The notes under the pieces are model-generated. The model was not told where the DNA came from. It saw nothing but the letters and a program-made list of their open reading frames with translations, and did not search any database. Source: Firmicutes bacterium CAG:345 (GTDB lineage Bacteria > Bacillota_I > Bacilli_A > RFN20 > CAG-288). Taken from it: a DNA stretch of 64,000 bases. Below, piece after piece: positions 19,771-63,467 of this stretch. The translations under genes were made by a program, and so were the position numbers. Every line of letters begins with the position of its first letter. Position 1 is the first letter of the stretch. Location: assembly GCA_000433315.1 (NCBI GenBank), contig FR893362.1, forward strand, positions 3,941 through 67,940, read 5' to 3'.

Positions 19771-19812
19771 AAAAACTCCTTGGTTAAAAATATAACCAAG
19801 GAATTTTTTATT
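19771..19812. terminator. bidirectional rho-independent terminator
   Basis: 9-bp stem tccttggtt/aaccaagga (19777-19785 / 19794-19802), with T-runs on both flanks. It serves the plus-strand small gene and sits after the minus-strand 1022-aa ORF stop. Confidence 0.6.
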
Positions 19813-27030: not shown

Positions 27031-27038
27031 ATTTTCAC

Positions 27039-28139: not shown

Positions 28140-29143
28140 CTGCTTAAACGAACACGTGGATCAACCACGGAATACATAATATCTGAGAACAAAGTTCCAA
28201 GGACAGATAAAATAGCTAAGAACATGTTGTATCCCATAACAAATGGAATATCAGCCTGTGTTGTAGCTTTATATGCAAGGTTACCAATACCATTGATACC
28301 GAATACTTGTTCAGTAATCATCATACCACCAAATAATGATGGTAAGATTCCTGCGAGGAGTGTAACAAGTGGAATAAGTGTATTTCTAAAAGCATGTTTA
28401 TAGATAACTCTTTTTTCACTTAAACCCTTAGCACGAGCTGTTCTAATGTAATCAGCACTTAATACTTCCAAAGTGTTTGTTCTTGTATAACGCATCAAAC
28501 CACCAATGGAAAGAAGAACAGATACAAAGATTGGCAAAACTAAGTGCCATGCCATCGAACCAAGTTTTTGGAAAAAGCCTCCGATAGTATTTGGGAAGGT
28601 TGCTGAAGCATCGATAAGTCCACTAGCTGGGAACCATCCTAAATCAACAGCGAATACTTTGATAACAATTGCACCAAAGAAATATGTTGGAAGGGATATG
28701 CCTAACATCGTTAATACAGTAACTGTATAGTCGCGGACTGAATATTGGTGAGTAGCACTGGAAACACCAAGAGGAATTGCAATTAAGAATTGGAAAATTG
28801 TTGCAATCAAAGCTATGCTGAAAGATACCCACATATTTTCAGAAATGACTTGGGCGACAGGTTTACGATAAATGAAGGAAACACCTAAATTTCCACGTAA
28901 CATATTGCCTAACCAGCCAATATATCCTTTGCATATTCCTAAAAATGAATTGTCATCCAATCCATATAATTTCAAATAAATATCAATACTCTCTTGAGAT
29001 ACAGCTCCTGACATCAATTGCGATGAGAATTTTTGCATAATATAGTTGTTAGGAATTAAACGAACCATAAAATAAATAATTACAGAAACGCCAAGAAGTA
29101 CTACTAAAGATATCAATATACGCTTAACTATATATTTAAACAT
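28136..29143 (-). CDS. oppB: oligopeptide ABC transporter permease (OppB-like)
   Basis: Six-transmembrane ABC permease. The EAA-like loop reads YIRTARAKGLSEKRVIYKHAFRN. Confidence 0.8.
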   Translation of the reverse strand: MFKYIVKRILISLVVLLGVSVIIYFMVRLIPNNYIMQKFSSQLMSGAVSQESIDIYLKLYGLDDNSFLGICKGYIGWLGNMLRGNLGVSFIYRKPVAQVISENMWVSFSIALIATIFQFLIAIPLGVSSATHQYSVRDYTVTVLTMLGISLPTYFFGAIVIKVFAVDLGWFPASGLIDASATFPNTIGGFFQKLGSMAWHLVLPIFVSVLLSIGGLMRYTRTNTLEVLSADYIRTARAKGLSEKRVIYKHAFRNTLIPLVTLLAGILPSLFGGMMITEQVFGINGIGNLAYKATTQADIPFVMGYNMFLAILSVLGTLFSDIMYSVVDPRVRLSR

Positions 29144-29147
29144 AATA

Positions 29148-29173
29148 CCACCAAAAGCAAGGCGATTTCTCGC
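29148..29173 (-). promoter_or_regulatory. GC-rich 11-bp stem-loop between oppA and oppB, a likely intra-operon attenuator or partial terminator
   Basis: aagcaaggcga-tttc-tcgccttgctt is a perfect 11-bp stem in an otherwise AT-rich genome. Confidence 0.5.
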
Positions 29174-29185
29174 CTTGCTTAATTA

Positions 29186-31785: not shown

Positions 31786-32973
31786 TTAATATAATGTTTT
31801 TTCTAAAGTGATTTGATATAAAGAAACGGCTTCTGTAGTAACTCTCAAATCATTCATAGTTGTTTGAGTAATACTGAAATTTGTTACTGTAGAATTACCA
31901 TCTTCATCTTCGAAAATAGCCTTGCTTAAATCGTATTCTAATGGACGATTTGTCCTGCTAGAGATATTGACGGTGTAATTAGAAACAGCAACATTATTTA
32001 TTATAGCACCTTTTGCACGTCCAGCCAAAGAACTAATATAAACATTTTGTGTACGAGTATTTTGTGTTTCAACATCGACTGAGAAGTTGTCAAATGTAAC
32101 ATCTTTAACAGTGGCTTCATTTAAATATGGGAATATTGCAATATATAAATCACCTTGAGTTTGTTTATTATATTGTAATTTGAAATTTCTAATTGTGTGG
32201 CCGTTGCCATTGAATTCTCCACGATAATTATTGAATAATGGGAAATTCTCGCCATTAAAATCGATATCATTATAAAGTAAGACATTGGCAGAACCACTTA
32301 CTTTTCTTAAATCGGAAATAGTGCGAACAACCGTATAATCACCTTCATAGAATTTAGCATAAACATTAACTACTGGAGATTCCTTATCTCCAGGATGTTT
32401 AAACTTAGAATCCCATAAAGTTGTTAATTCTTCATCGCTATAAAAATCTAAGAATGTGTATCCTTCAAGAGATTTAGTATAATTTCTATAATCCTCGAAT
32501 TCCGCTCCTTTTTCAGTATCATAGACACCTAATGATTTAACTTCTCCAGAAACAGGATCAGTATAGCAAACATTGTATTGGAATTTGACATCTTCAGTCC
32601 AACAAGCATAAAGTGTTAAACCTTCAATACCAACTTTTTCAGTTTCGAAATCAAATGGATCTGAATATGTATAACTAGGATTATCTTCAGTACTTGTTGA
32701 ATCAAGAGTTCTAGTTTTATACCAACCTGTTAAAACATATCCTAATTTTCCGACAGTGCCTGCTTGATAAGGATCGAAAAGATAAGTTCTATCCTCTTTA
32801 CTTTCTAATTCATATTTATACTTAATGTATTCAGTATCTTTTTCATTGCACTGGCCACCATTTAAATAGAAATAAACTTCTGTTTCAATAGAGCCGTTAT
32901 TATTTGAATTACAAGAAACTAATCCAATTGAAGCGATTAACAAAGATAATAATAAAAACTTACTTCTTTTCAT
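31786..32973 (-). CDS. lipoprotein with a Flg_new (Listeria-Bacteroides repeat) domain
   Basis: Lipobox LVSCN and the LTGWY repeat signature. 395 aa. Confidence 0.55.
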   Translation of the reverse strand: MKRSKFLLLSLLIASIGLVSCNSNNNGSIETEVYFYLNGGQCNEKDTEYIKYKYELESKEDRTYLFDPYQAGTVGKLGYVLTGWYKTRTLDSTSTEDNPSYTYSDPFDFETEKVGIEGLTLYACWTEDVKFQYNVCYTDPVSGEVKSLGVYDTEKGAEFEDYRNYTKSLEGYTFLDFYSDEELTTLWDSKFKHPGDKESPVVNVYAKFYEGDYTVVRTISDLRKVSGSANVLLYNDIDFNGENFPLFNNYRGEFNGNGHTIRNFKLQYNKQTQGDLYIAIFPYLNEATVKDVTFDNFSVDVETQNTRTQNVYISSLAGRAKGAIINNVAVSNYTVNISSRTNRPLEYDLSKAIFEDEDGNSTVTNFSITQTTMNDLRVTTEAVSLYQITLEKTLY

Positions 32974-32984
32974 TTTTCGCCTCC

Positions 32985-33662
32985 TTAATTTGCAGAATAA
33001 TCAATAACTATATTATCGTAAGAAAAGTTATAAACTGCTTTAGCTTCTAAAGATAAATTATCTCCAAAATCAATATAAGAAAAAGTAAATGAAGTAAAAT
33101 GATCATTTTCAACTTTCAATTCAAATGCAAAATCTTTAACATTAGTAAAAGAACTTTCATTAAAGAAATTAGATAAAGAATCCTGTTTAACGTTTCCTTT
33201 AAATCCATCTGAAGTTTCAGTAACATTTTCAAGATATTTATCTTCAAAAGTGAAACTTAAGAATTGCTCAGGAATAACATAACTTTTTTCAGTAGTAATT
33301 CCATAGTTATCAGTATAGTATTGTGTTTCACCAATTGTTACATAAGAAGTATTTTCAATATTGTACTTATTAGGATAAGCAATACTGAAGTTAGGATTTA
33401 ATCTACTGGTTGAAGTTGAAAGACTTGTCCTGATTGAATCACCTCTTTGAATTTTGAATTCATTAGAAGTTTCATAAACTATATCATCACCATCTATCAA
33501 TTTGTAATTGCTAGAGTAAGATGTGAAATTATCAGAAGTATTAATATAAATTTGTTCGAGTTTAGAATGTGGAACATTTGAAGAAGAGCTATTGTTATTA
33601 TTGCAGCTAACTAACGAAATTGCCACTAAAGGGAGAAGGGCAACAATTAAAGATTTTCTCAT
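32985..33662 (-). CDS. hypothetical lipoprotein (225 aa)
   Basis: Signal peptide plus lipobox LVSCN. It overlaps the stop of the giant gene (ATGA). Confidence 0.5.
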   Translation of the reverse strand: MRKSLIVALLPLVAISLVSCNNNNSSSSNVPHSKLEQIYINTSDNFTSYSSNYKLIDGDDIVYETSNEFKIQRGDSIRTSLSTSTSRLNPNFSIAYPNKYNIENTSYVTIGETQYYTDNYGITTEKSYVIPEQFLSFTFEDKYLENVTETSDGFKGNVKQDSLSNFFNESSFTNVKDFAFELKVENDHFTSFTFSYIDFGDNLSLEAKAVYNFSYDNIVIDYSAN

Positions 33663-36600
33663 AATGCTGCACCTCCTTTCTTTTTAGTAACAATTAAGGC
33701 AACACCAGCTGCAGATACTAAAGCAACGATAGATGCAGTTACTGCAACTGCAACATTGCCAATTTTATTTACTGCTGCAGAATTTTCAATCTTGCTATTC
33801 AATGCATCAGTATAAGCTTTAAATTGAGCTTGGAAAGCATCTAATTTAGAAGTATCAAGATATTGACGATCTTCTTGATCGATCTTATTGACATTTCTTA
33901 ATATAGCAAGGTATTCATCAAGCTTAGATATACTGAACGAACCTAAATTATTGATATCATCTACCAAATAATCATAAGTCTTAGAAACTTGTTCACTCTT
34001 CAAATCATAATAAGTATTATAGGCATCTTCAAGTTTTAAAGCTAAATCAGTAACATCAGCAGATGAGTAGCCAAATTTTGTTAAATCTTGATTTAACGCA
34101 TTGTAATATGTACGACCATTTAATATAGCATCCTTATCTTTCAAAGTAATATTTTCAGGTAAAGAATTAACTGTATCAATATAATTCAAAGAATTTCTAT
34201 TCAATGTTTCACCAACTTCAGTTGTATTAACTTTATCGAAGTCGAAGTAAATAATATAAGGAATAGAAGAATATGTAGAAGCAACATAGTTAGATGGAAC
34301 AGCAACGCTCAATCTGCTAACAGTTCCAACATATCCAACAAATTGATTGTATCCAAGTTTAATATCACCATTGAAGTTAAGATATGCTGTCAAAATTTTA
34401 TAAATTTCAGAAGAGGTATCATAAGAAATACTGCTATTTAAAATTGTTGTAGTCAATTGTTCATCATAACTTAAAACTGGTAATTCATTTTGATTATCGA
34501 CAACATTCATTGCTTCAAGAGCAGGGGCATTAGTAGAACGGAAAGTAACTTTATTTAAATTGTTAGATCCGCTGAATGCACCGATTCCAATTTTAACTAA
34601 AGCATTAGATAATGTCACTCTTGTAAGATTTCTGACATTGCTTACAGCATACATTTGAATGTATGTTGCATCATCTTTCATAACAAAATCAACATCAGTC
34701 TTACTAGATGGATAACAGTTAAGAGCATACTTACCATTATTCATCTTAACATATAAAACGCCATTATCAATTAAGCAATAATCATTGACTTCACTTGTAA
34801 TCATGCCAAAGTTTGTGAAAGATGCTAATTTTACATTATTATAGAAGGCTGTTTCTCCTATATAAGAAATAGTACTTGGAATATCAACTGTTGTAATATC
34901 AAGTCCAGAGAAAGCTTGTTTTCCAATGTAATTAACGTTTGGCATATCAATTGTTTTAACTGCAGAAGCAGCTAAGAAAGCAAAATCACCAATTGTTTTA
35001 GCAGAAGATAAACTCAAAGAAGTTAATCCTTTAGCGGCATAGAAAGCACCTTTGCCGAAAGTTTCAACTTTACTTAAATTAATTGAAGAAAGTTTTGTAG
35101 TATTCTTAAATGCTTCGCTGCCAATATTTGTAATATTAGTAGCATTGACTGTAACAAGACTTGAATCGCCACTGAAAGCAGAATCGCCAATACTAGTTAC
35201 TTTTTCGCCTAAGCTAACTGTTGTTAAAGAAGTACAATTAGCAAAGCAAGATGTTGGTAATGAAGATAAAATACTAGATAAATTAGTTACTGTTCTTAAA
35301 CGTGCGCAATTTTCAAAAGCAGAATCACCAACATATGAAACATTGCTTGGAATTGTAATTTCGTTCATTCTAGAACCATAGAAAGCTTGACTACCGATAG
35401 ATGTTAATTTATTGCCAAGAGTAACTCTCATATTAGAATTAGAAATAGAAGCAAAGGCATTATCGCCAATTTCCTCAACATTTTCCAAATCTATTGTTGT
35501 CAATGAGTAATCGCCACTAAAAGCACCATTGCCAACACGACCAGCAAGGAATTTAAAATTGAACGAAGATAAACTTGTACATCCAGCAAAAGAATTATCA
35601 CCAACTACAACATTGCCACTTCCAACAAAACTTACTTTTGTTAAAGATGTAAGATTTCTAAAAGCATCAGTTCCTAAAGTAACATCTTGTCCAATAGTAA
35701 GAGAAACTAAGCGTGTACCTGCTAAAACATCAGCACCAACTTTAACCCCATTAGGAAGTACAAAGTCAGTAATTGATGTTCCACTAAATGCATTATCACC
35801 AATTTCTTTTAAAGTAGTAGGAAGTACAATTTCAGAAATAGAAGTATTTTTGAAAGCATTTTTCCCAATAGTTAATAATCCTTCTGGAAGTTTAACACTA
35901 GTTAAATCAGCAACTTTTTCAAAAGCATTATTTCCAATTGTTTTTAAAGTAAGAACGTTGCTTAAATCAATTGAAGTTAAACCTTTAATTGCACTGAAAG
36001 CACCAGAAGAAATTGTTTCAAGTCCTGGGAATTCAGTAGCAAAATCAAACGAAGTTATATTGCTATTTGGAGCAACTAAATAAATAGTTTTTCCATCAGC
36101 ACTAACCAAAACATTATTTGATATATTGGTTTTATAATTGATATTATCAGTAGCTACTTCAAAAGATGATACAGTGTTTGGAACAACAGAAGTACCAATC
36201 TTTTCAATGAATGTCTTACTGGCTAAAACTAATTTATCCAAATTGGTGCAACCAGAAAATACATCATCTTCTAAAGTAATATTGCTAGATGGAAGAGTGA
36301 AAGTTGTTAAGCTTAAGCAATCAGCAAAAGCTTCATTATCAAAGTATTCCACACCGCCTTTAAATGTAACTGAACTTAATGAAGTATTATTTTTGAAGGC
36401 ATATTGGCCTACAAAGATTAAGTCATTTTCAACAGTGACTTTCTTTAAAGAAGTGCAATCTTCAAAGCAACCTTCTGGAATTCTATCAGTATAAATAGTG
36501 ACATCTTCTAGTCCAGATCCTTTGAACATATTTTTAGAAAGTTTGGTATATTCACCAGAAGTAAATGATTTTAAAGAAGTACAATTTTCAAATGCTCCTG

Positions 36601-39600
36601 TACCTGCATTTCTAAGTGTCGTTATGTCAACAGTTTTTAAAGAAGTACAATTTCTAAATGCATTTTCTGCAAGAGCATAAATGTTAGAAAGATCAGCTTC
36701 CTCTAAAGCAACACAACCATCAAAGGCAGCTTTATTAATTATAGAAACAGTTCCAATATTAGCTTTCTTTAAAGAAGTACATTTTTGGAAAGCATATTGA
36801 TTGATTGTTGTAATGTTTTGATTAGAAGTTGGAGTTGCATTTGGATTGACTTTAAATTCAACTTCTTGAAGATTCGAACAATTGTAGAATGCATATTTGC
36901 CAATTGTATTAACAGAATAAGGAATGATTACTTTTGTAATAAATTCATTGCCAGCAGGGATTTTATTAGCATCCCAATCGTCTTCATTGACAATAATCGA
37001 CATATCTGTTGTATAAGAAGCGAAAGCATAATCAGAAATTTCAGTCAAGTTAAGTCTTTCTGGAATCTCAACAACACCATTTTCATCGCCTATACCTTTA
37101 TAAGCAACTAATTTACCATTTTCAACAACAAATGGACTATTGACTACAATACGTTTACTAGCTAAGATGCTCGATTGTACGCCATCAATTGATACTCTCA
37201 ATGTTAAAGTAGCAGAGCCTTCTTTGAGAGCAACAACATGGCCATCTTGATCAACTGATAAAACGTTAGGATTAGATGTTGACCAAGTTAATTCATAGCC
37301 TTGTAAATTCCATGGAGTAATTTCATAGTGCATGTAGATTTTTTCACCTGGATACATAGATATAGCACCAGTATATGAAGAAACATAGTTTGAACTGCCT
37401 GTAGTTCCAATATTAGCAGTTTGTCCCCCACGAGGGAAAGCAAACTCTGTATCAAAATATGTAAATTGAATATCTTTTAAAGTTGTAGCAGCTTTTAAAA
37501 TCTTATTCGAATTACGAGTGACGATCAAACGCAATGTTGCTCTTGCAACATATCCATCTGTTGTAACAAAGCTAGCTGTAATAGTTGAAGTGCCAGCAGA
37601 TAAGCAATCTACTTGACCACCTTTAATAATAGCAACTGATTCATTGCTTGAAGACCAAGCAAGTGAAGACATATATTTTTGTTTTTCAGCTTCATTCAAA
37701 TTTTTAAAATTTTCAGAAGAAGAATTGATATATTGTGTTAAATCTATTGTTTCACCAACTTTTCCAGAAATTGATTGAAGAGCTAATCCTTCTGAATTAA
37801 CAAAGTTAATAGAGCCTTTAGAATCAATATCTGTACCTGGAAGATTGACAAAATAGTAATTGGAATTCATTGCATAGTCTTCAACCATGATACCTATACC
37901 ATTGGTTAAAGCTAAACCATTAGCACCTGAGCCATTTGCTAAGCTTGGCAAATAATCAGTGATTTCAAATCTTACAGAAGATGTAGTTCCTTTTTCTGTT
38001 CCATAAACTGGAATTGGAGTAGAAGAAAGATCAACTAAACTGCCAGCTTGTAAAATAAATGGACGAATATCCATAGCATAGTGATTATCATAAACTTCAA
38101 CAGTTAAATAATAGCGATAATCTCTTAAAGAGCGATCATATTCTGATTCATATTTAACATTTTTAATAATAGGAGCTTCATTATCAGCTGTAAATTTAAA
38201 TGAGAATGTATTATTTAAATTTGTATTGACGCCACCATCACCATAGTCTAATTTAGCTTCCATAGAAACTGTGTAAGTTGAATTATTCTTAAGACCTACT
38301 TCAGTAGCTAAGATATTCAATAAATCAGTAGAAGGATAGCCATTATATGCACGAATCTGATCATGATTTACATGATAATAAATCACTTCGCCTGTAGCAT
38401 CATCAGTAATTTTAGTAATTACTTCTTTACCACCTCTCATCAAACCGGCATAAATTGTTGTAATACCATTGATAGATGTAGAACTTGTACTAATTGCAGC
38501 ATGTTCCTCAGATGCTGGAATAGCGTCGTATCCACTAGGAATATCATAAACATAAGAACCTAATGGAATAATGTAGTTAGAGAAATATGTTCCATAAGGA
38601 GTTGTAGCATAATAATCAGCTTTAATTTTATCTTCATCATCTATTGCTTGATTATGAGCAGTAGATTCAACTTCATAGAAAGTCTTATCAAATATTGGAG
38701 CCTTTGTCCAATCGCCAAAGAAGCCAAGATATGGAGCATTTAAATCGATTTTAGCTTCGGTATTATCTTTGAGACAAGTGAAACCTTCGATATACATACC
38801 ATTAGGGAATAATTCCTTAATTGATCTTTTTTCTTCAGCAGAAAGAGTTAAAGTTTGTTCTATTGTTACAACACTATTAGCAGGAACTGTAACAACATCG
38901 CCTTCTAATGTACCAACATCAGAAAGAAGTTCTACTGATTGTGAAGGATTTAACATATTTGCGTGTTCAGCAACATATCTACTATCATAAGTCGAAACAG
39001 ATTCAGTCATTGTTTCATTGCTTATTGTATATGAAAGTGAGTCTGTAGAACTCATATTTACAATATTATATTTGAGTTTATAAACACCAGTTTCATTTGG
39101 ATCATCACCTATTTCAAGTTTACTTCTATCAGTGCCATCAACAGTGATATATCCTTGAGTGGTTGTAGCTTCCTTTAAACTGGCTAAACCAGCGCCTTGC
39201 TTACGAGGAGAATATGGGTTTCCATATTGATCCAAAGCAATAGTTGCAGTAGACATTAAAAGTTGCATTGATAAAGCATTGACTTCTGTTGGTTTAAATT
39301 CTGGGAATTTTTGTTTAACGTATTGACGAATTAAAACAATAGCACCACACATGTTAGGTGAAGCCATAGAAGTACCACTTAATGTATTGTATTTGTTTCC
39401 TGGGATAGCTGAAAGAATATTACCACCATGAGCAGTAATTTCTGGTTTTAATTTTAAATCAGGAGTTGGACCCCAGCTAGAGAAATTTGACATGAATGGT
39501 CCAGCTTGTTGTTCGCGGCTAAATGTTAAAGAACCACTAGATTTTTTAGCTAAAACTTCACCATCATCTTGGCTGATTGAACAGAAAGGAATAGCTAAAT

Positions 39601-54304: not shown

Positions 54305-54488
54305 TATGTTCTTTTATATTGTATTTCACTTATATTTTTTTGTCAATACTTTTTCTTTTCTTAAACTTTTTTCAATATACAATTTTCAAAATATTTTTCA
54401 TATTTTTTACAAAAAAATTATTTTAATCTAGATATAAAAAATGTATAATGTCAATATAATATGTAAGCGGTTACAATAGGAGGAAAAT

Positions 54489-56552
54489 ATGACTTACACA
54501 CCGGATAAAATTAGAAATATTGCTATCGTTGGGCACCAGGGCAGTGGAAAAACCAGTTTGGTTGAATCTTTAGCGTATAAATCTCAACTGATTAAAATCA
54601 AAGGAACAATAGAAAATAAAAATACCATTTCTGATTATCTTCCAGATGAAAAGAAAAAGCAGTCTTCTTTATCATCTTCAATTATTCCACTTACTTATAA
54701 TGGTTATAAATTGAATTTAATTGATATACCTGGCAATGATGACTTTATTTTTGAAACAATAGGCATTACTAGGCTAGTAAAAGGAGCAATCTTAGTTATC
54801 GATGCCTCTAAAGGAGTTTTAGTCAACACTATAAAAAGTTTTAATCTGTTAAAAAAGCGTGGTGTTCCTATTTTTATATATGTTAATAAAATGGATAAAG
54901 AGAATATAAAATTTACCAACTTATTAACAGAAATAGAAGAAAAATTAGGTGGGAAAAAGTGCGTTCCATTTTCCTATCCTATCGGCAAACAAGATTCATT
55001 TGATGGTTTTGTCAATATTGTCGACCTTAAAGCAAGAAAATATAACGGAAAAGAATGCGTTGATGATGTCATTTATGATGATAAAAAACAAATTGTTTTC
55101 GAACTTCATAATAGATTATGTGAAGCTGTTGCAACAACTAATGATGAAATGTTAGAAAAGTTCTTTTCCGGAGAACCATTATCAAATGAAGAGATCAAAG
55201 CAGGATTGCGCCAAGGTGTTTTAAATGGAGAATTATATCCAGTTATCGTCGGTTCTGCTTTAAAAGATATAGGCATCAATACATTACTTGAAATGATGGT
55301 CGATTACTTACCTTCTCCTACTGATTTAAAACCTATTTCTGCTTTTGATGAAAATGGAAAAGAAATAACTATTAAAACAGAAATAAATGCTCCTATGAGT
55401 TTACAAGTGTTTAAAAACACATATAATCAATATCAAGGTCTTATCAGTATATTCAAAGTTCAATCTGGAAAAATTAAAGTTGGGGATGAAATATATTGTC
55501 CTAACAACAAAAAATTCTATCGTATTAATTTTTTATTTTCTGTTGAAGGTGAAAAATTATTACCAATTGATGAAGCAACTGCTGGTGATATCGCAGCAAC
55601 AAATAGATTAGAAGAAATTAAATTATCATATACGTTATGCGATAAAGATTACCATATTAGATTTAAAACTGTTTCTTATCCTACATCTACTTATTTCAAA
55701 GTTATAGTTCCTGATACAAAAAAAGATTCTGATAAATTATTCCCTAGCGTTGAAAAAATAATGCTTGAAAATCCGACAATTTCATTAAGAAAAGATGAAG
55801 CTACTAATCAAATTCTATTTGGGGGTCTTTCAACAACACATTTAAATTACATGTTCTCTCGATTAGAAAATGAATATCAAATAAAATTCAAAGTTGAACA
55901 ACCAAAAATTTCTTATCGTGAAACTATAACCACTACAGCCGAGAGTGAAGGAAGATATGTTAAACAATCTGGCGGAAGCGGATATTATGGAATTGTCAAT
56001 ATGGAATTTTCTCCAAGCGATCACACCGAATTTATTTCAACAGTATTTGGAGGACATATTGATAAAGGATATTTCCCTGCAGTTGAAAAAGGTTTCTTAG
56101 AAGCATTAAAAGAAGGCGGACTAATCAAAGCCCCTGTAATTAATGTTAAAGCAAATTTAAAAGACGGAAAACAACATTCAGTAGATAGTAACGAAATAGC
56201 CTTTAAAAATGCTGCTATACTAGCATTCAAAGAAGCATATAAAAAATGTAACCCTATAATACTTGAACCATATGATAAAATTATAGTCATTGTACCTAGT
56301 GAATATCTTGGAGCAATATTAAGTGATTTAGCAAAAAGAAGAGCAAGAATTTTATCAACCGATGAAGATGAAGGAGTTAATTTAAAGGTTACAGCGATTG
56401 TTCCAGAGTCTGAAATTCTTGAATATTCAAATGAAATCAAATCTTTAAGTAAATCTACTGCTTTCTTCAATTTGAGTTTCTACGATTACGAACAAGTACC
56501 AGAATTAATTTCTAATAAAATCTTAGCTACTTACAACAATGAAAAGAAATAG
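54489..56552 (+). CDS. elongation factor G paralog (EF-G-like trGTPase) with a degenerate G domain
   Basis: Clear EF-G-like domains III-V (YVKQSGGSGYYGIVNMEFSP, compared with [20 protein letters not shown] in fusA). G1 is GHQGSGKT. There is no RGITI switch-I motif. G3 is DIPGNDDF, so the catalytic His is replaced by Asn. G4 NKMD is present. AGGAGGA ribosome-binding site. Confidence 0.75.
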   Translation: MTYTPDKIRNIAIVGHQGSGKTSLVESLAYKSQLIKIKGTIENKNTISDYLPDEKKKQSSLSSSIIPLTYNGYKLNLIDIPGNDDFIFETIGITRLVKGAILVIDASKGVLVNTIKSFNLLKKRGVPIFIYVNKMDKENIKFTNLLTEIEEKLGGKKCVPFSYPIGKQDSFDGFVNIVDLKARKYNGKECVDDVIYDDKKQIVFELHNRLCEAVATTNDEMLEKFFSGEPLSNEEIKAGLRQGVLNGELYPVIVGSALKDIGINTLLEMMVDYLPSPTDLKPISAFDENGKEITIKTEINAPMSLQVFKNTYNQYQGLISIFKVQSGKIKVGDEIYCPNNKKFYRINFLFSVEGEKLLPIDEATAGDIAATNRLEEIKLSYTLCDKDYHIRFKTVSYPTSTYFKVIVPDTKKDSDKLFPSVEKIMLENPTISLRKDEATNQILFGGLSTTHLNYMFSRLENEYQIKFKVEQPKISYRETITTTAESEGRYVKQSGGSGYYGIVNMEFSPSDHTEFISTVFGGHIDKGYFPAVEKGFLEALKEGGLIKAPVINVKANLKDGKQHSVDSNEIAFKNAAILAFKEAYKKCNPIILEPYDKIIVIVPSEYLGAILSDLAKRRARILSTDEDEGVNLKVTAIVPESEILEYSNEIKSLSKSTAFFNLSFYDYEQVPELISNKILATYNNEKK

Positions 56553-56555
56553 TAA

Positions 56556-56590
56556 AAATCTCTGCAATAGCAGAGATTTTTAAATTTTTC
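56556..56590 (+). terminator. rho-independent terminator after the EF-G paralog
   Basis: 10-bp stem aaatctctgc/gcagagattt with an aata loop, followed by TTTAAATTTTT. Confidence 0.65.
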
Positions 56591-56660: not shown

Positions 56661-57506
56661 ATGAAAAATCCTGATGATATAATCTCTACTACAGACGACT
56701 TATTCTTTTCAGCTCGAAATTATTATAATCATGGAAAGATAGAAGATTGTTACAAAATTATTAATAAACTTGCTTATGAAAATAATCCCCGTGCATTATT
56801 CATAAAAGGAATTATGATTTTAAATAAATGCATATCTTCAAATGATGATGGTGAAAAATATATCTATCTAGCAGCAAAATATGATTATCCACTTGCTTTC
56901 TCATTACTTATACTTAATAAAATAAGTAATTCTGATTTTGGTAATGCAATAAATTTTTATAAAGAAAATAATAGAATTGATGAGCCATTATTCAAATTAT
57001 TTTACGCAATGGCGCTATTAAATATTGGAGAAAAACATCCATATTACGATATGGCATATGATATTTTGCAAAACATAAAACCAGAGATACAAAAAATAAA
57101 AGATAAAACCATTGAAAACTATTCACTTTATGAAGAATTCAATCTTTATAATAAAAACTTCTATTTAAATTTAGATGAAATATTGGCTGCTTATCATTGT
57201 GACTTCATGCTCTTTTATTATGTTCTTCCACAAAAAGCTACAAAGGATTTATATTTATCTAATGCTGATTCAGCAAATAAATATATCAGCACTCCGCGAA
57301 GTAAATTCTACTATTTAAAAATATTGCTCTTAACTAGAATGAAAAATTATTTTAATCTAGGAATAGAAGAAAACATCAATAAAGAAATAGAAGAGTTTAA
57401 AATTGCCTTCAAAAACTTAAAAGAACACGAAAGAAATTATTATAAAGCAACATATAATCAAATACTTGAAATATTTAGTAGCGCTCCATATAAAATAAAT
57501 GAATAA
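56661..57506 (+). CDS. hypothetical helical-repeat protein (281 aa, possibly TPR/Sel1-like)
   Basis: ORF from the track with an AAGGAG ribosome-binding site. A C6 tract lies in the spacer between the ribosome-binding site and the ATG. Confidence 0.5.
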   Translation: MKNPDDIISTTDDLFFSARNYYNHGKIEDCYKIINKLAYENNPRALFIKGIMILNKCISSNDDGEKYIYLAAKYDYPLAFSLLILNKISNSDFGNAINFYKENNRIDEPLFKLFYAMALLNIGEKHPYYDMAYDILQNIKPEIQKIKDKTIENYSLYEEFNLYNKNFYLNLDEILAAYHCDFMLFYYVLPQKATKDLYLSNADSANKYISTPRSKFYYLKILLLTRMKNYFNLGIEENINKEIEEFKIAFKNLKEHERNYYKATYNQILEIFSSAPYKINE

Positions 57507-57634: not shown

Positions 57635-57663
57635 TTGAAAAGAAAAACAAAAATACGTATAAT
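57635..57663 (+). promoter_or_regulatory. near-consensus sigma-A promoter generating a leaderless transcript for the ABC ATPase
   Basis: TTGAAA (57635-57640), 17-nt spacer, TATAAT (57658-57663), then attc and ATG at 57668. Confidence 0.55.
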
Positions 57664-57667
57664 ATTC

Positions 57668-58591
57668 ATGTTTTGTGGGGTATTTATTTTGATTCTTTCT
57701 TATAAAAGTGGCACTATTTTTTCAAAATATAATTATCAAAATAAAGAAATTGTAAAAGATGTGTCTTTTAAGATTGCTGAATCCTCTTCTTTAGCCATAA
57801 TAGGAGAAACTGGATCAGGCAAAACAATTATTGCTAACTCAATAATGAATTTGTTACCACCAGATATCAAATCGACTAATAATGAAATAATATTTGAAAA
57901 TAAGAATATAACCAATTACAAAAAAATAAAAAAACTACTCGGTAGCAAAATAATTTACATTCCACAAAGCGGTAAAGATGCTCTTTCTCCAAATCTAACA
58001 ATAAAAAAACATTTTATAAATATTCTTAAAAGGAACAAATATAAGAAAAAAGACTTTAATAATATAATCGCAGAAAAATTAAACAACGTTGAAATATCAA
58101 ACTATGAAGAAATATTAAATAAATATCCTTTTGAAATTTCTGGTGGAACTGCTCAAAAAATAGTTATTGCTTTATCTTCCTGTTCATCTGCCTCCTTAAT
58201 TATCGCCGATGAAATGACAAATGGAATTGCTGAAAAAGAGAAAATAGAAAAGTTTAATCTTATTGATAGACTATTTCCTACTGCTGGGAAAATTTATATT
58301 ACTCATGATATTTCCATCGCTAAACTATGTGATGATATTCTAGTTCTAAACCATGGAAAAACTATGGAACAAGGACCAGCTAAAAAAGTTTTAATCAATC
58401 CTCATCATCCTTATACTAAAGCACTTTTATCATCACTACCAGAAAATGGCTTAAATACAATTCCTTTGCTGTCATATTTGAAAGGATATTGTCCATTTTA
58501 TCAGCGTTGTCAAAATAGAAAAGACAAATGTCTTATCAGTTTCAAAAAAAAACAACTGGATAAAATAGTATGGTACTGCAATTATGATTGA
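57668..58591 (+). CDS. Opp/Dpp/Nik-family ABC transporter ATP-binding protein (OppD-like, degenerate motifs)
   Basis: Walker A GETGSGKT, signature ISGGTAQK, Walker B LIIADEMT, H-loop ITHD, and a C-terminal HPYT oligopeptide domain. The start is moved to ATG 57668 because the ORF-track TTG at 57635 is the -35 hexamer. Confidence 0.65.
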   Translation: MFCGVFILILSYKSGTIFSKYNYQNKEIVKDVSFKIAESSSLAIIGETGSGKTIIANSIMNLLPPDIKSTNNEIIFENKNITNYKKIKKLLGSKIIYIPQSGKDALSPNLTIKKHFINILKRNKYKKKDFNNIIAEKLNNVEISNYEEILNKYPFEISGGTAQKIVIALSSCSSASLIIADEMTNGIAEKEKIEKFNLIDRLFPTAGKIYITHDISIAKLCDDILVLNHGKTMEQGPAKKVLINPHHPYTKALLSSLPENGLNTIPLLSYLKGYCPFYQRCQNRKDKCLISFKKKQLDKIVWYCNYD

Positions 58592-59222
58592 AATTAGTAA
58601 TATTTGTAAATCTTTTGGAAATAAAAGAGTTTTAAACAATTTTTCTCTTAAAATAGAAGATAAATGCATTGTTGGAATATATGGAAAAAATGGTTGTGGT
58701 AAATCAACTTTATCACGAATTTTATCTGGGTCATTAAAGCCAGATGAAGGAAAAATCTTTATTAATAATTCAGAAGTTGTTTCAAAAGACATATATAAAT
58801 ATGTTCAAATGGTTTATCAGCAGCCTTTCGCATCATTTGATCCGGTAAAAAGAATAAAGAGTGGAATAAAAGAAATTATAAAATATTATAATTTAGTTCC
58901 CAAAAAAGAAATAAATTCATACATTGTATATCTGCTACAAAATATGGAATTAGATAAAAAAATTCTTAATCATTTCCCACATCAAATTTCAGGAGGCGAA
59001 GCTCAAAGAATAGCAATTTTGAAATGTTTGCTATTAAAGCCGCAATTATTAATTCTCGATGAATCAACATCTATGCTAGATGTAACTACTCAAGCTAACA
59101 TTTTAAGTTATATAAAATCTCAAGTTATCAGCTATGGTGGTTCAATAATGATCATAAGTCACGATTATAAGTTATTAGAAGCCTATTGTAACAAAATTTA
59201 TAATATAGAGGAGCACATATGA
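58584..59222 (+). CDS. ABC transporter ATP-binding protein (short OppF-like)
   Basis: GKNGCGKST, ISGGEAQR, LILDESTSMLD, ISHD. 212 aa. Confidence 0.8.
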   Translation: MIEISNICKSFGNKRVLNNFSLKIEDKCIVGIYGKNGCGKSTLSRILSGSLKPDEGKIFINNSEVVSKDIYKYVQMVYQQPFASFDPVKRIKSGIKEIIKYYNLVPKKEINSYIVYLLQNMELDKKILNHFPHQISGGEAQRIAILKCLLLKPQLLILDESTSMLDVTTQANILSYIKSQVISYGGSIMIISHDYKLLEAYCNKIYNIEEHI

Positions 59223-60826
59223 AAAAAAATAAATTTTTACCAATCACAATCATCCTTTTAGGATTGATTAATACTGGATGTCAAAATAAAAACACATTAG
59301 AAAATAATAAAAATATTACCATCGGCACTTCAATGAAATTGGAAAAAGCCACTCGTGATGAATATAATTACGACACTCTGTCTAGTGGCATTTCTGAACT
59401 ACCTCTAGTTTCTAAAAATACTGATGGAACTTTCTCGCCATTATTAGTCGATTACACTACTAGCGACTCTAAAATTTGGACTCTCACTCTTAACGACAAC
59501 TATCGATGGTCAGATGGCAACAATGTTACTGCCGAAGATATTCTCTTTTCTTTAGAATATGAATGGGATAACAATACACCTTTATTTTCAAATTCTAATG
59601 AAAAAGGTGAATTTGAAACATATTCTATTTCTGAAGATAATAAAAGCATATCTTTAACTTTAGAAAAAGCTAATATAAAATATCTCGACAATTTAACAAC
59701 TTTTAGAATAAGACCTAAACATATATACAACAATAAAAATACTGATGAAATTACAGTTTCTGATGCCAGAGTTTCTTGTGGACCTTACATTTTAAATAAT
59801 TTTAGTCTTGAAACTAATTCTTTGGTTTTTACTAAAAATCCATATTATCCTAAAGAAACAAAATTAAAAAAAATTACTTATATTTTATTTAATAATGAAG
59901 AAATGCTTTATAATAGTTTAAATCAAAATTCTGTCGATTTTATTTGGAACTACTCTATTGGTATTCCTACATCCTACCAAAGTATTCTATCTCAAAATGA
60001 TAATATAAAATTTGCTTCTATTACTGCTTCCAATTGCCCAGCAATATTGCTTTTTAATAATAAAAAAGGATTTGGCTCGGATAAAAATATAAGAGCCGCT
60101 ATTTCCTATGCCTTAAATTATCAAGATTTTAAAAAATATTTTGGAAGTGAATTTGCTTCTACTCCTAATAAAAGTTTTGCTCCAAGCTCTCTTACGGGAT
60201 ATAAAGAAACAGAACATTTAGTAACTGATTATAGTATCGCTGACGAATATATGAAAAAAGCAGGATATATTAAAGAAGACACTACTTATAAAAAGCAAGG
60301 CGTTGAAGCTTGCTTAAATCTAACAATTAATTCAAAAAAGGAAACACACATAAGCTATGGCGAATTTGTAAAAACACAATTAGAAAAATTTGGAATAAAA
60401 GTAAATTTAGACACTGTTGATTCTACCCTTTTCAACGAAAAAACGAGCCATAAATTTGCTACAGAAGGTCCTGATGGTTTCAATGAAATAACTATGGAAG
60501 CTGCAATTATGGGATTTACTGCCTACGGAATGAAAAATCTCGGTGGAATGTATATTAACGGAAACAATAATGTTCAAGGTGGTGGAGAAGTCTATAATGA
60601 AGAACTAGATAATATTATGAATTCTATGGAAAGTTCCAAAACAATAGAAGAATATATGATCTACACTGGACAATTACAAGACTTTTATGCAAATGAACTT
60701 CCTGCTATCGCTTTATTTTGGGATAACACTATTTATGCTTATTCGAAAAATTTAAAAAATGTTCATATCGATAGCGTTTTCGGTTTGAATAACTATAAAA
60801 ATTTCACAGAAATGATTAAAGAATAG
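59219..60826 (+). CDS. solute-binding family 5 lipoprotein (oligopeptide/nickel-type substrate-binding protein)
   Basis: Lipobox LINTGC. At 535 aa it is typical of family-5 substrate-binding proteins. Confidence 0.7.
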   Translation: MKKNKFLPITIILLGLINTGCQNKNTLENNKNITIGTSMKLEKATRDEYNYDTLSSGISELPLVSKNTDGTFSPLLVDYTTSDSKIWTLTLNDNYRWSDGNNVTAEDILFSLEYEWDNNTPLFSNSNEKGEFETYSISEDNKSISLTLEKANIKYLDNLTTFRIRPKHIYNNKNTDEITVSDARVSCGPYILNNFSLETNSLVFTKNPYYPKETKLKKITYILFNNEEMLYNSLNQNSVDFIWNYSIGIPTSYQSILSQNDNIKFASITASNCPAILLFNNKKGFGSDKNIRAAISYALNYQDFKKYFGSEFASTPNKSFAPSSLTGYKETEHLVTDYSIADEYMKKAGYIKEDTTYKKQGVEACLNLTINSKKETHISYGEFVKTQLEKFGIKVNLDTVDSTLFNEKTSHKFATEGPDGFNEITMEAAIMGFTAYGMKNLGGMYINGNNNVQGGGEVYNEELDNIMNSMESSKTIEEYMIYTGQLQDFYANELPAIALFWDNTIYAYSKNLKNVHIDSVFGLNNYKNFTEMIKE

Positions 60827-60845
60827 ATAATAAAGGATTTTAATA

Positions 60846-61829
60846 ATGAAGAAATATATAAAACACATCATCATCGCCTTTATCAGTTTCCTTTTGATTG
60901 TGATTTTAAATTTTCTTCTACCAAGATTATTGCCTGGAAATCCTATAGGATATTTAACTGGACTTAATGAAGAAGGTATGTCTGCCGAAAAATATGCTTT
61001 TTATTACCATGCTCTTCATTTAGATGAAAATATATTATCTCAATTTAGGTATTATCTAATTGATATTTTCAATGGTACTTTAGGCTATTCATATAAAAAA
61101 GAGGCTACTATAAGTTCTCTTATATTTTCAAAAATTGGTGTATCTTTACAAATAACTTTTCCAGCTGCTTTTTTCTCTATACTAATAGGAATATTATGGG
61201 GCGTAGAAAGTGGGTATAAGAAAAATGGTTTTTTTGATAATTTTTCTACAATTCTATTATTGACTTTGAATACTATTCCTCTTTTCGCCATCGCTTTAAT
61301 TTTAATAATTCTCTTTTGCTTTAATTTAAACATTTTTCCATATTATGGTATATCAAGTGGAATTTATTCACCAGGTTCAATCGAATTTTTCTTTGATAGA
61401 TTATATCATCTTGTCCTTCCGATTTTAACCATAATTATTGGTTCATTCCCATCAAAATATTTATTACTAAGAAATACAACAGCACAATTTGTTGACAATA
61501 AATGTGTCTTATATGCTAAGCAATGTGGATTATCAAATTCAAAAATTAAATTTTCTTATATCTTAAAAAATATATCACAACCAGTAATAGCTATGATCGG
61601 AACTACAATAGGAAATTGTTTTGTCGGTTCTATAATTGTAGAAAATATATTCTCCATAAACGGAGTAGGTGGGCTATTAAATGATGGAATCAATACTCTA
61701 GATTATCCATTAATTCAAGGAATACTTTTTGTAACAACACTTTTTATGGTAATTTGTGTAATGATTTCAGATATTTTATGTCTATTAGTTGATCCTAAAT
61801 TAAGAAAGGAAAAAGAAAATGAAAATTAA
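60846..61829 (+). CDS. ABC transporter permease (OppB/DppB-like)
   Basis: Six-transmembrane protein of the binding-protein-dependent family. Confidence 0.75.
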   Translation: MKKYIKHIIIAFISFLLIVILNFLLPRLLPGNPIGYLTGLNEEGMSAEKYAFYYHALHLDENILSQFRYYLIDIFNGTLGYSYKKEATISSLIFSKIGVSLQITFPAAFFSILIGILWGVESGYKKNGFFDNFSTILLLTLNTIPLFAIALILIILFCFNLNIFPYYGISSGIYSPGSIEFFFDRLYHLVLPILTIIIGSFPSKYLLLRNTTAQFVDNKCVLYAKQCGLSNSKIKFSYILKNISQPVIAMIGTTIGNCFVGSIIVENIFSINGVGGLLNDGINTLDYPLIQGILFVTTLFMVICVMISDILCLLVDPKLRKEKENEN

Positions 61830-62631
61830 ACGTCTTCCTTTTTTAATTATTGGCATCATACTATTGCTAACTTTTTTAACTATGGCAATATTCCCACAAT
61901 TTTTCACAAGTTACAATCAAAAGTATTCTTTTGAGCCTTGGCTTCCCCCTTCTTTTTCTCATATTCTTGGAACAAATTCGCTCGGTTATGATATTTTTGC
62001 TGAATTAATCTATGGGGCAAGACAAACTATTCTTATTTCTTTAACTGCTAGTTTAGGTTCATTAATAATTGGTGTTATCATTGGAATACTTGCATCATTT
62101 GATTCTATTATTGGAACCTTTTTCAATGGAATTATCAATATTTTTGTCTTGCTTCCTAAATTATTAATATTAATTGTTTTCGTAAGTTTCCTTAACAACA
62201 ACAATTTAACTTTGATAATTTTAATTTCCTGTTTTACTTGGGTTTCCACTGCAAGATCAATTAAAGCAAAGCTTATCAATTTAAAAAAACAACAATTTAT
62301 CGAAGTAAATAGACATTATGGCTTTCCAAAAATTCATAATATATGTATACATATTTTGCCAAATTTAAAAGACATAATTATGACAAGACTACTTTTAGGA
62401 ATAACCACTTGTATCATGATGGAATCGACTTTAAGTTTTTTAGGTTTTGGTAATTTATATTATCCAACATGGGGTGTCATGATAAATTTTGCAAGAAATA
62501 GAGGAGCATTAGTTCATCAAGCTTATGGATATTTAATAGCTCCTTGTTTATGCATTGCCTTTTTATCTCTTTCTTTTTACTTCATTTCTATTTATTTTGA
62601 AGCTAAACAAACTATAATAGATAAGGATTGA
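61819..62631 (+). CDS. ABC transporter permease (OppC/DppC-like)
   Basis: Polytopic ABC permease, overlapping the upstream gene. Confidence 0.75.
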   Translation: MKIKRLPFLIIGIILLLTFLTMAIFPQFFTSYNQKYSFEPWLPPSFSHILGTNSLGYDIFAELIYGARQTILISLTASLGSLIIGVIIGILASFDSIIGTFFNGIINIFVLLPKLLILIVFVSFLNNNNLTLIILISCFTWVSTARSIKAKLINLKKQQFIEVNRHYGFPKIHNICIHILPNLKDIIMTRLLLGITTCIMMESTLSFLGFGNLYYPTWGVMINFARNRGALVHQAYGYLIAPCLCIAFLSLSFYFISIYFEAKQTIIDKD

Positions 62632-63467
62632 CTATGAATAAAGAAAAAGAAATTTGGTTAAAAATTAAACCTCATCATCATACTCATTTAGCTGAAATAA
62701 GATCTGACCAATATAATGAATTATTTGAAAAAAAATCAGTTATCCAAGATTCAGATGAAGTAAAAAAAGCTAAAAAGAAAATAAAAGATGAAGGAGAGAC
62801 AATCGATAATATTTTAAATCTCATCCAGTGTTTAAATAGTCAACTAAGATATAACGATTCTATTTTTTATCTTGAAAAAGCTCTTAAAACTTTCCCAGAA
62901 AACTATCGTTTAGAAAGAGCCCTAGCTATAAGGTATCTTACTGCAAATAAAATAGAAAAAGCATTATTTCTATTTAAAAAAATATTCGAAAAAACAGATG
63001 ATAAATTAGATATTACTTACCGTATCGGATTAGCATATTTTTATCTAAAACAATATAATTTTGCCAAAGAAAATTTTTTAATTTCTTTAAATCTTTCAGA
63101 AAAAAATAAAGAAATGTATATTGCCTGCATATACTGGCTATTATTGACAAACGTACAACTTAAAGAGAGCATAAATGAAACATTAAATAATTACCATGAC
63201 TTTTTTGTAACCCACCATGCTGGTTATGAATATGCTGTTCGCTTGTTTTTAAATGAACCTTTATCAGATTATGAAGAAATTTCTAAATCTGATAATTTGA
63301 CAAGGGTAATGTTTCTTTTTGGCTTGTACCATTTTTATCTTTACAAAAATGATACAAAAAAAGCCGAAGAAACTTTTTCACTCGGCTTAAAATGTGATGA
63401 ATATTGGGCTAGTTTTTCTGGGCTAGGATTTTACTACTTATTAATCTCCAACAATTTTCTTTCTTAA
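62628..63467 (+). CDS. TPR-repeat protein (279 aa)
   Basis: Repeated helical pairs with A/Y/L TPR-like periodicity ([20 protein letters not shown]..., [20 protein letters not shown]). It overlaps the permease stop. Confidence 0.55.

Follow-up and report, generated by a model that had tools for sequence, protein, structure and literature searches.

EF-G2 (EFG II) is a widespread, fast-evolving second elongation factor G. A defining trait is the loss of the RGITI motif, in place of which stands the consensus xxxSx with Ser (or Thr) at the fourth position; the subfamily keeps G1, G3 (DxPG), G4 (NKxD), and G5 (Margus et al. 2011, PMC3150367). EFG II co-occurs with another EF-G in the same genome, usually EFG I, and is known to split along phylum lines. 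Two sets of residues mark the subfamily: the type I differential residues, in 1WDT numbering (16 Gly, 25 Leu, 61 Ser, 291 Thr, 333 Gly, and 352 Lys or Arg); and the type II positions D216, V250, L264, K471, K472, E513, and G603, for which conservation across the family is only 84-96% (Margus et al. 2011, PMC3150367). A search of the text of that study turned up no Firmicutes, Bacilli, Mollicutes, Tenericutes, or Acholeplasma; one of Atkinson 2015 turned up neither EFG II nor Tenericutes.

Three members serve as points of reference. Thermus thermophilus EF-G2 (1WDT/2DY1) carries HRTTV at G2 and DAPGYGDF at G3; despite the Tyr at the position of the catalytic His, ribosome-dependent and intrinsic GTPase as well as translocation activity have been reported (PMC3150367). 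Bacteroides thetaiotaomicron EF-G2 (FusA2, BT2167; 7UVP, 8DMF) carries YGYSV and DCPGSDDF, with Ser at the His position. As related in papers that cite Han et al. (2023, EMBO J), the Bacteroides factor "enables GTP-independent translation"; carbon limitation induces it 238-fold, and gut colonisation depends on it. The Mycobacterium smegmatis protein (9K0Z/9K10), in which Tyr replaces the catalytic His, is without ribosome-dependent GTPase, and H88Y in EF-G1 nearly abolishes activity. This EF-G2 is reported to lack translocation and recycling activity, and is described as a stress-specific factor that binds non-ratcheted 70S and 50S particles. Because it appears to be a stress regulator rather than a translocase, EF-G2 proteins are not mechanistically uniform. 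In canonical EF-G, the Escherichia coli H91Q variant hydrolyses GTP at the wild-type rate (174 vs 202 s-1), and its Pi release is about 20-fold slower.

A 64,000-nucleotide stretch of the Firmicutes bacterium CAG:345 genome (hereafter, the window) encodes a new member of this known subfamily, not a new kind of protein. The coding sequence occupies positions 54489..56552 (+ strand), exactly the open reading frame first noted as an EF-G paralogue, and specifies 687 residues. The five-domain architecture of an EF-G homologue is evident from its Pfam matches: GTP_EFTU (1.5e-41), EF-G D2, EFG_III, EFG_IV (3.3e-33), and EFG_C. The AlphaFold model is confident (pLDDT 90.2, pTM 0.82). A Foldseek search against the PDB gave TM 0.85-0.92 to ribosome-bound structures of EF-G and EF-G2 alike, confirming the EF-G fold without separating the two types.

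Signals read from the sequence frame the gene closely. A Shine-Dalgarno element, AGGAGG (54478..54483, +), lies 5 nt 5' of the ATG; and a terminator-like hairpin (56553..56582, +), with a 13-bp stem and T-rich tails on both strands, directly follows the stop codon, which suggests that the gene is monocistronic. Across the whole window, the sole Rfam match was one tRNA elsewhere, with neither a riboswitch nor a leader 5' of the gene. The flanks are, as originally described, a metal-efflux operon (with an ArsR regulator, an HMA protein, and a P-type ATPase) and an Opp-type ABC importer. This arrangement is not conserved: when the open reading frames of the window and of 80 related loci were clustered, no neighbour was shared by more than 11 of the 81 loci, so the surroundings are incidental. 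The locus shows no mobile-element context and is not part of the str operon.

Canonical fusA (42762..44834, - strand) belongs to that operon (rpsL(?)-rpsG-fusA-tuf), which the window also contains. Both rpsG and tuf were identified, and a 137-residue open reading frame at 45342-45755 is the candidate rpsL. This fusA, with RGITI and DTPGHVDF as the initial annotation stated, scores 1057.6 bits against the canonical EF-G equivalog TIGR00484 (cutoff 659.4) and has the EFG I state at six of six type I positions (A, T, T, I, A, G). It serves as the housekeeping EF-G alongside the EF-G2 paralogue, just as EFG II is generally accompanied by EFG I. The paralogue is 32% identical to it, and 32-33% identical to canonical EF-Gs such as this one and that of Staphylococcus aureus; shared with the canonical type are the five-domain fold, the length, the domain IV loops, and NKMD.

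Alignment of the paralogue to the window fusA and to Staphylococcus aureus EF-G (2XEX) was free of gaps across G1-G4. The P-loop region, V14-GHQGSGKTSL-24 (54528..54560, +; AHIDAGKT in fusA), contains the EFG II-type residues Gly15 and Leu24. Gln17 replaces a hydrophobic-gate Ile and Gly18 replaces the P-loop Asp; the second gate Ile is Ser59 (gate positions being those defined in published work on M. smegmatis EF-G2). The G2 motif in switch I is K57-Q-S-S-L61 (54657..54671, +) where fusA has RGITI: Lys57 replaces the switch I Arg, and Ser60 occupies the position of the Mg-coordinating Thr. RGITI is indeed absent, as initially noted, but to call the switch I sequence unrelated overstates the case, for it has canonical length, keeps D49, E54, and S60, and fits the EFG II pattern xxxSx without gaps.

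The G3 motif in switch II reads D79-IPGNDDF-86 (54723..54746, +; DTPGHVDF in fusA), placing Asn83 (54735-54737) where canonical EF-G has its catalytic His. Residues 40-95 contain no His at all; because the alignment is also ungapped, neither a catalytic His nor a switch I motif is hidden by an indel. Two further motifs are retained: G4, NKMD (54885..54896, +; NKLD in fusA), which confers guanine specificity; and G5, GSALKDIG (55251..55274, +; GSAYKNKG in fusA). Thus, the elements for nucleotide binding are kept (the P-loop GSGKT, a Ser at the Mg-coordinating position, DxPG, NKMD, and G5), whereas every canonical element for ribosome-activated hydrolysis is gone (the catalytic His, both gate Ile residues, the P-loop Asp, and the switch I Arg). 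Replacement of the His, both gate residues, and the P-loop Asp makes impaired ribosome-stimulated GTP hydrolysis plausible, judging from these motifs.

Assignment to EFG II draws on several kinds of evidence. The type I residues are G15, L24, S60, N310, G354, and R373: five of six are in the EFG II state and none is in the EFG I state, N310 (1WDT position 291) being neither. On the other side, only four of seven type II positions match (V252, L266, K492, and E533), and N218, V491, and S623 differ. G1, G3, G4, and G5 are all retained (GHQGSGKT, DIPG, NKMD, and GSALK), and are conserved across the 80 related loci. The G domain finds its best matches among solved structures in the EF-G2 of B. thetaiotaomicron (7UVP/8DMF, 6.7e-30) and that of T. 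thermophilus (1WDT, 5.5e-24), neither of which has RGITI or the His; both outrank all canonical EF-Gs. In the 150 nearest representatives of 50%-identity clusters, the His position is occupied by Y (60), F (29), S (10), D (10), N (8), H (5), and others, and just three combine RGITI with His. A neighbour-joining tree (100 bootstraps; distance-based and without outgroup, so that the split is unrooted) separated canonical EF-G in 100 of 100 replicates and placed the paralogue on the side of 1WDT and 7UVP; the grouping of the paralogue with the Mollicutes-like clade was recovered in 85 of 100. The paralogue therefore clusters with a known family that shares its substitutions, and the initial view that it is not a standard EF-G2 does not stand.

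A further point for EFG II is that the paralogue falls below the cutoff for the canonical model TIGR00484 (532.5 bits vs 659.4); RGITI and the His are both absent. It also falls below cutoff for two narrow EF-G2 models: NF058620 for Bacteroidota (528.6 vs 1000), the match to which is split into two stretches (the best covering 2-509), reflecting a missing domain IV insertion; and NF009377, "EF-G-like protein EF-G2" (440.7 vs 890). It does pass NF009381, an "elongation factor G" subfamily (728.3 vs 583). This model was rejected as a specific assignment because the window fusA (776.6) clears its cutoff too, as does a representative of Bacteroidota EF-G2 (854.9). A recycling-only EF-G paralogue (spdEFG2 or mitochondrial EF-G2) was likewise rejected: this type requires G1-G5 with the catalytic His, which the paralogue lacks, and mtEF-G2 retains all G motifs along with His145.

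Orthologues define a clade of EF-G2 that spans gut Bacilli of the RF39 type and lineages resembling Acholeplasma, Anaeroplasma, and Haloplasma. All 80 orthologous loci, from species-level genomes (RF39, Acholeplasma, Anaeroplasma, and Haloplasma), contain intact open reading frames of about 680 residues. NKMD is present in each, and GxxxxGKT is likewise invariant. In the P-loop region, Gly15 is found in 80 of 80 and Leu24 in 69; position 60 is Ser in 74 and Thr in six. No clade member has His at the catalytic position, which is N in 59, S in 15, and I, Y, or A in two each. Within a closer circle, PGNDD is found in 120 of the 120 closest homologues. The exact protein sequence recurs on 11 contigs read from public metagenome assemblies, and 188 sequences belong to its 90% cluster. 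Protein identity to the nearest DNA relatives is about 70%, a distance at which synonymous sites would be saturated.

Domain IV (Pfam EFG_IV, residues 472-587; 55902..56249, +) is the best conserved domain of the clade, with 46 of 119 columns at least 90% conserved. Its tip, the part that reaches the decoding centre, is conserved as well; the tip loops are KQSGGSGYYG and DGKQH563SVDSNE, and His563 is present in all 80 clade members. The gene is a vertically distributed core gene of the whole lineage. It is functional and not decaying, given the 80 intact orthologues, the invariant motifs, the strong Shine-Dalgarno element, the terminator of its own, and its recurrence in metagenomes.

How does the paralogue compare with its described relatives? 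Like T. thermophilus EF-G2, and EFG II at large, it lacks RGITI, has Ser at the G2 Thr position in keeping with the EFG II pattern, carries the Gly16, Leu25, Gly333, and Lys/Arg352-type residues, keeps G1, DxPG, G4, and G5, conserves domain IV best, and has a fusA companion. The residue after DxPG is in neither case His (Tyr in 1WDT, Asn here). Differences are the Asn in place of Tyr or Phe at that position, the G4 motif (NKMD here, TKLD in 1WDT), Asn at the 291 equivalent, three of the seven type II positions, and the source lineage, RF39/Mollicutes-like Bacilli. B. thetaiotaomicron EF-G2 is very similar in switch II (DCPGSDDF against DIPGNDDF), and shares a GSGKTTL-type P-loop and the domain IV tip DGK.H.VDSNE. 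Both hosts live in the gut and carry canonical fusA elsewhere in the genome. Nonetheless, the two proteins are only about 33% identical, the paralogue lacks the domain IV insertion of about 30 residues (687 vs 718 residues in all), and its NKMD and KQSSL correspond to NQLD and YGYSV. The Cur/BT4338-type regulation of the Bacteroides gene is neither known nor expected here. M. smegmatis EF-G2 is part of the EFG II radiation too: its switch I likewise fails to conserve Arg, Ile, and Thr, and the structures are similar (TM 0.90). It differs in that its P-loop, G4 (TKLD), and G5 are also changed and its C-terminal helix is shorter.

By analogy with Bacteroides EF-G2, the paralogue probably acts as an alternative translocase that binds GTP but hydrolyses little or none of it upon stimulation by the ribosome. 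Modelled on the B. thetaiotaomicron protein, it would bind GTP and the ribosome, and would drive slow translocation of tRNA and mRNA with little or no GTP hydrolysis. It would thereby offer an energy-saving or stress-time alternative to FusA, not a replacement for it. Some residual GTPase may persist, since GTP hydrolysis is seen with T. thermophilus EF-G2 as well as with E. coli EF-G H91Q; the conserved Asn83, with an amide side chain like that of the H91Q Gln, could support such hydrolysis. A more particular proposal, that the clade is a mechanistically distinct EF-G2 in which the conserved switch II Asn (PGNDDF) makes a slow, His-independent GTPase in the manner of the Ras Gln, or else a hydrolysis-free translocase that even strongly genome-reduced, energy-poor gut Bacilli keep because surviving starvation in the gut requires it, is offered as rather speculative.

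The question of residual activity shades into the chief alternative, a possible though not favoured one: an EF-G2-type protein that is still a working, if slower, ribosome-dependent GTPase, in which placement of the water or the gamma-phosphate falls to Asn83 or a different residue, and which therefore acts as an alternative translocase that consumes GTP. The reported GTPase and translocation activities of T. thermophilus EF-G2 with its DAPGYGDF, the H91Q variant with only its Pi release slowed, the fairly conserved Asn (in 59 of 80 clade loci and all 120 closest homologues), and the intact nucleotide-binding motifs are all consistent with this. However, the position is nearly free in the wider family (Y, F, S, D, N, L, A, T, I, G, V, E, Q, or M), and some clade members have S, I, A, or Y instead of N, a pattern that argues against a catalytic role for Asn83. 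The Asn side chain also has one methylene fewer than that of Gln; the loss extends to the gate Ile residues and the P-loop Asp; and the Bacteroides (Ser) and mycobacterial (Tyr) proteins are without the activity. A role as a non-translocating, stress-specific regulator that occupies the factor site of idle or stationary-phase ribosomes has its precedent in M. smegmatis EF-G2, a member of the same radiation that binds non-ratcheted 70S and 50S without GTPase or recycling activity. Such a role appears unlikely here: domain IV is the best conserved part, the tip loops that are critical for translocation do not vary, nor does His563, in line with Bacteroides EF-G2 and canonical EF-G, and the paralogue keeps the NKMD and G5 that the mycobacterial protein has changed.

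Other readings fit the evidence poorly. The initial annotation favoured a new pseudo-GTPase class separate from EF-G2, and the failure of the narrow NCBIfam models (NF009377 and NF058620), together with the minority status of Asn at the His position (eight of 150 representatives), might seem to agree. Yet those models are phylum-specific, and EFG II itself divides along phylum lines; the diagnostic residues, best solved relatives, nearest-neighbour composition, and tree all point to EFG II, making a separate class very improbable. The idea of a pseudo-GTPase, moreover, has already been demonstrated experimentally for Bacteroides EF-G2 (Han et al. 2023, as cited by other papers) and for mycobacterial EF-G2. 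The PDB molecule name of the Bacteroides protein, "Tetracycline resistance protein TetQ," and weak matches of the paralogue to tet_protect models could suggest a Tet(M)/Tet(O)-like role in ribosomal protection or antibiotic resistance. This is highly improbable, as the initial annotation also judged: the score against NF012153 (Tet(M)/Tet(O)-type protection) is 284.7 bits against a cutoff of 775, every Tet model falls far under its cutoff, and the motifs are not intact; domain IV is full-length and of EF-G type, with KQSGG and His563; and the gene is a vertically distributed core gene of its lineage, free of mobile-element context. Finally, a decaying, non-functional duplicate of fusA might be imagined from the lost catalytic residues and the 32% identity to the local copy. 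Intact orthologues in 80 species-level genomes, invariant nucleotide-binding and domain IV residues, a confident predicted fold, and the flanking Shine-Dalgarno element and terminator leave this scarcely credible.

As a discovery this adds little, since the loss of RGITI in EFG II was described in 2011, and the loss of the His with hydrolysis-independent translocation was described for Bacteroides EF-G2 in 2023. Annotation models call both paralogues "elongation factor G," and so hide the distinction between them. A clade with a fairly conserved Asn and an intact NKMD provides a clean comparison case for the question of which EF-G2 proteins still hydrolyse GTP. Moreover, EF-G2 has been kept throughout RF39 and related Mollicutes-like lineages, and its retention in such small genomes argues against its being a dispensable luxury.

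Two EF-G homologues are encoded in the window: canonical fusA (42762..44834, −), flanked by rpsG and tuf, and an EF-G2-type paralogue of 687 residues (54489..56552, +). The two proteins share 32% identity and align without gaps across motifs G1 to G4, as does the paralogue with S. aureus EF-G. Paired motifs (paralogue, then fusA) are: G1 or P-loop, GHQGSGKT and AHIDAGKT; G2 or switch I, KQSSL and RGITI; G3 or switch II, DIPGNDDF and DTPGHVDF; G4, NKMD and NKLD; and G5, GSALKDIG and GSAYKNKG. These alignments bear out the initial annotation, which had noted that RGITI and the catalytic His are absent and that the GSGKT P-loop and NKMD are present. Its description of switch I as unrelated is overstated: the segment is of equal length, retains D49 and E54, and places Ser60 at the position of the Mg-coordinating Thr. 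(A catalytic His shifted by an indel was considered and ruled out: the alignments are gap-free and residues 40–95 contain no His, which therefore has not been displaced.)

Margus et al. 2011 (PMC3150367) delimited the EFG II (EF-G2) subfamily by the following traits: RGITI is missing and the consensus there reads xxxSx; G1, G3, G4, and G5 are kept; six residues are differentially conserved; and a canonical EF-G constantly co-occurs. The paralogue has the EFG II state at five of those six residues (Gly15, Leu24, Ser60, Gly354, and Arg373) and neither state at the sixth, whereas the window fusA has the EFG I state at all six; weaker "type II" positions match EFG II at four of seven. (For this mapping, the 1WDT sequence was checked against the PDB and that of 7UVP was taken from an alignment.) In a search with the G domain alone (residues 1–150) across all PDB sequences, every canonical EF-G ranked below the pair of solved EF-G2 proteins: B. 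thetaiotaomicron EF-G2 (7UVP/8DMF; 6.7e-30; YGYSV, DCPGSDDF), then T. thermophilus EF-G2 (1WDT; 5.5e-24; HRTTV, DAPGYGDF). Neither has RGITI or the His.

HMMER, run exhaustively over 1.84 billion cluster representatives, placed the protein in similar company. In the 150 nearest proteins (50% identity level), DxPG is followed by Y in 60, F in 29, S in 10, D in 10, N in 8, L in 7, A in 5, and H in 5, with others in the remainder; RGITI and DTPGHVDF occur together in only three. The nearest sequence space thus overwhelmingly lacks both features. A neighbour-joining tree was built from 165 sequences, with 100 bootstraps on a 65-taxon subset; its main limitation is that it is distance-based and unrooted. 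Canonical EF-Gs (the window fusA, S. aureus EF-G, and three His-bearing representatives) split off in 100/100 replicates, leaving the paralogue on the side holding 1WDT and 7UVP, where it groups with RF39-, Acholeplasma-, Anaeroplasma-, and Haloplasma-type sequences (85/100). Together, the diagnostic residues, PDB matches, nearest representatives, and tree make membership in EFG II very probable, and contradict the earlier view that this is not a standard EF-G2.

Neighbouring categories do not fit. The protein is neither a canonical EF-G (532.5 bits against the NCBIfam equivalog cutoff of 659.4) nor a ribosomal protection protein; it fails all NCBIfam Tet models, in line with the original rejection of a Tet(M)-type function. 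Nor is it a recycling-only paralogue, as the G motifs of those are intact. It also lies outside the Bacteroidota EF-G2 sub-group, lacking the domain IV insertion and scoring below the model cutoff, and fails both narrow NCBIfam EF-G2 models. It passes NF009381, "elongation factor G" (728.3 bits; cutoff 583), but so do the window fusA (776.6) and a Bacteroidota EF-G2 representative (854.9); that model therefore does not discriminate paralogues, and NCBIfam is unhelpful for naming here. Outside Bacteroidota, and wherever the narrower EF-G2 models all fail, the two paralogues would alike receive the plain name "elongation factor G", as "Bacilli bacterium" homologues already have. The molecule name in the 7UVP/8DMF sequence files is "Tetracycline resistance protein TetQ" (the 8DMF title says EF-G2), so that a name-based reading would wrongly point to a ribosomal protection protein.

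The predicted fold is that of EF-G. A confident AlphaFold2 model (48-sequence alignment; pLDDT 90.2, pTM 0.82) matches ribosome-bound EF-G structures at TM 0.85–0.92, and EF-G2 structures at 0.89 (Bacteroides, 8DMF), 0.90 (M. smegmatis, 9K0Z), and 0.83 (1WDT), a comparison that does not tell subfamilies apart. Pfam finds the complete architecture: GTP_EFTU (1.5e-41), EF-G D2, EFG_III, EFG_IV (3.3e-33), and EFG_C (9.2e-21).

The gene has its own Shine-Dalgarno sequence (AGGAGG, 54478-54483, +), five bases ahead of the ATG, and a 13-bp hairpin with T-rich tails (56553-56582, +) directly follows the stop codon; these features suggest a monocistronic gene that is expressed independently. At about 0.29, its G+C content is in keeping with the rest of the window. 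A 149-residue antisense frame entirely within it (56021-56470, −), with a low-complexity translation, is almost certainly a shadow ORF. Past the terminator, a 281-residue ORF (56661-57506, +) gave no Pfam match at the thresholds applied, and belongs to no ORF cluster common to at least five related loci. As first described, the gene sits between a metal-resistance operon (ArsR/HMA/P-type ATPase) and an Opp-type importer. Across related loci no neighbour is conserved, and these flanks are uninformative on function.

Elsewhere in the window, a 2517-residue ORF immediately downstream of tuf (33659-41212, −) carries many BspA-type leucine-rich repeats (LRR_5, 4e-129) along with S8 subtilase and PA domains, and resembles a giant protease or adhesin of the cell surface, here in a gut bacterium with a small genome. 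Peptide ABC systems of the Opp/Dpp type occur twice, at separate sites (24591-31780, −; 57635-63467, +). The former has an unusually long family-5 solute-binding protein (864 residues) and two ATPases (416 and 408 residues) whose ABC domains begin only at about residue 75–87. The only Rfam match, a tRNA (10784-10857, +), lies just upstream of the gene for a 948-residue pullulanase/alpha-amylase-type protein with CBM48 and PUD domains (7764-10610, −). Four further minus-strand ORFs lack Pfam matches at the thresholds used: 19808-22876 (1022 residues), 31786-32973 (395), 32985-33662 (225), and 46084-46683 (199).

Scanning a single genome for each GTDB species yielded 264 stretches encoding relatives; the 80 loci retained belong to Candidatus Enterosoma and other RF39-type Bacilli MAGs, Acholeplasma oculi, A. 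equifetale, Anaeroplasmataceae, Haloplasmataceae, Mariniplasma, and Izemoplasmatales. All 80, the present gene included, lack the switch II His (N 59, S 15, I 2, Y 2, A 2) and keep both NKMD and GxxxxGKT; at position 60, 74 have Ser and six have Thr. Among the domains, conservation peaks in domain IV, where 46 of 119 columns reach at least 90% and the tip loops (KQSGG.G, DG..H.VDSNE) and His563 are invariant. PGNDD occurs in all 120 closest homologues (69–100% identity), and the exact protein is on 11 contigs from public metagenome assemblies, with the same local context in the four loci shown. The gene appears to be under purifying selection, with nucleotide binding and decoding-centre contact apparently preserved and the His position relaxed. 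Eight loci (L001, L002, L008, L031, L032, L046, L047, and L048) carry Bacilli/RF39-type EF-G2 on contigs whose deposited names belong to unrelated taxa (Prevotellaceae, Paludibacteraceae, Alistipes onderdonkii, Phocaeicola dorei, Gemmiger formicilis, Slackia, and Acutalibacteraceae). L046–L048 are identical to a Bacillales MAG locus, L043, in their P-loop and in both switch strings (I and II). These look like mis-binned or mislabelled MAG contigs, not horizontal transfer.

Judged from its motifs, the nucleotide-binding pocket is intact and the canonical activation apparatus dismantled. Besides Asn83 for His, four more residues differ from fusA: in the P-loop, Gln17 replaces the gate Ile and Gly18 the Asp; in switch I, Ser59 replaces the gate Ile and Lys57 the Arg. 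According to the M. smegmatis EF-G2 paper, the canonical residues at these four positions place the catalytic His and make contact with the sarcin-ricin loop. By analogy with B. thetaiotaomicron EF-G2, the protein would bind GTP and the ribosome, and would promote translocation while ribosome stimulation would cause it to hydrolyse little or no GTP. Published accounts state that the Bacteroides EF-G2 "enables GTP-independent translation", undergoes 238-fold induction when carbon is limiting, and is necessary for colonising the gut; it is also cited as an EF-G paralogue catalysing translocation without GTP hydrolysis. M. smegmatis EF-G2 (His to Tyr) has no ribosome-dependent GTPase, and H88Y in EF-G1 nearly abolishes activity. 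However, T. thermophilus EF-G2 (Tyr) reportedly retains GTPase and translocation activity (PMC3150367; M. smegmatis EF-G2 paper), and the mycobacterial protein seems to act as a regulator under stress rather than as a translocase. Moreover, the H91Q change in E. coli EF-G leaves GTP hydrolysis as fast as in the wild type and slows only Pi release; an amide at the His position is therefore not necessarily dead. We accordingly give a hydrolysis-poor translocase even or slightly better than even chances.

The proposal that first drew attention to this gene, an EF-G-fold protein with impaired GTP hydrolysis, is thus reasonable, and such impairment is already established for the EF-G2 family. Two points are mildly new: an EF-G2 paralogue is kept throughout RF39/Mollicutes-like lineages, groups not found by text search of the 2011 survey; and this clade prefers Asn at the switch II His position.
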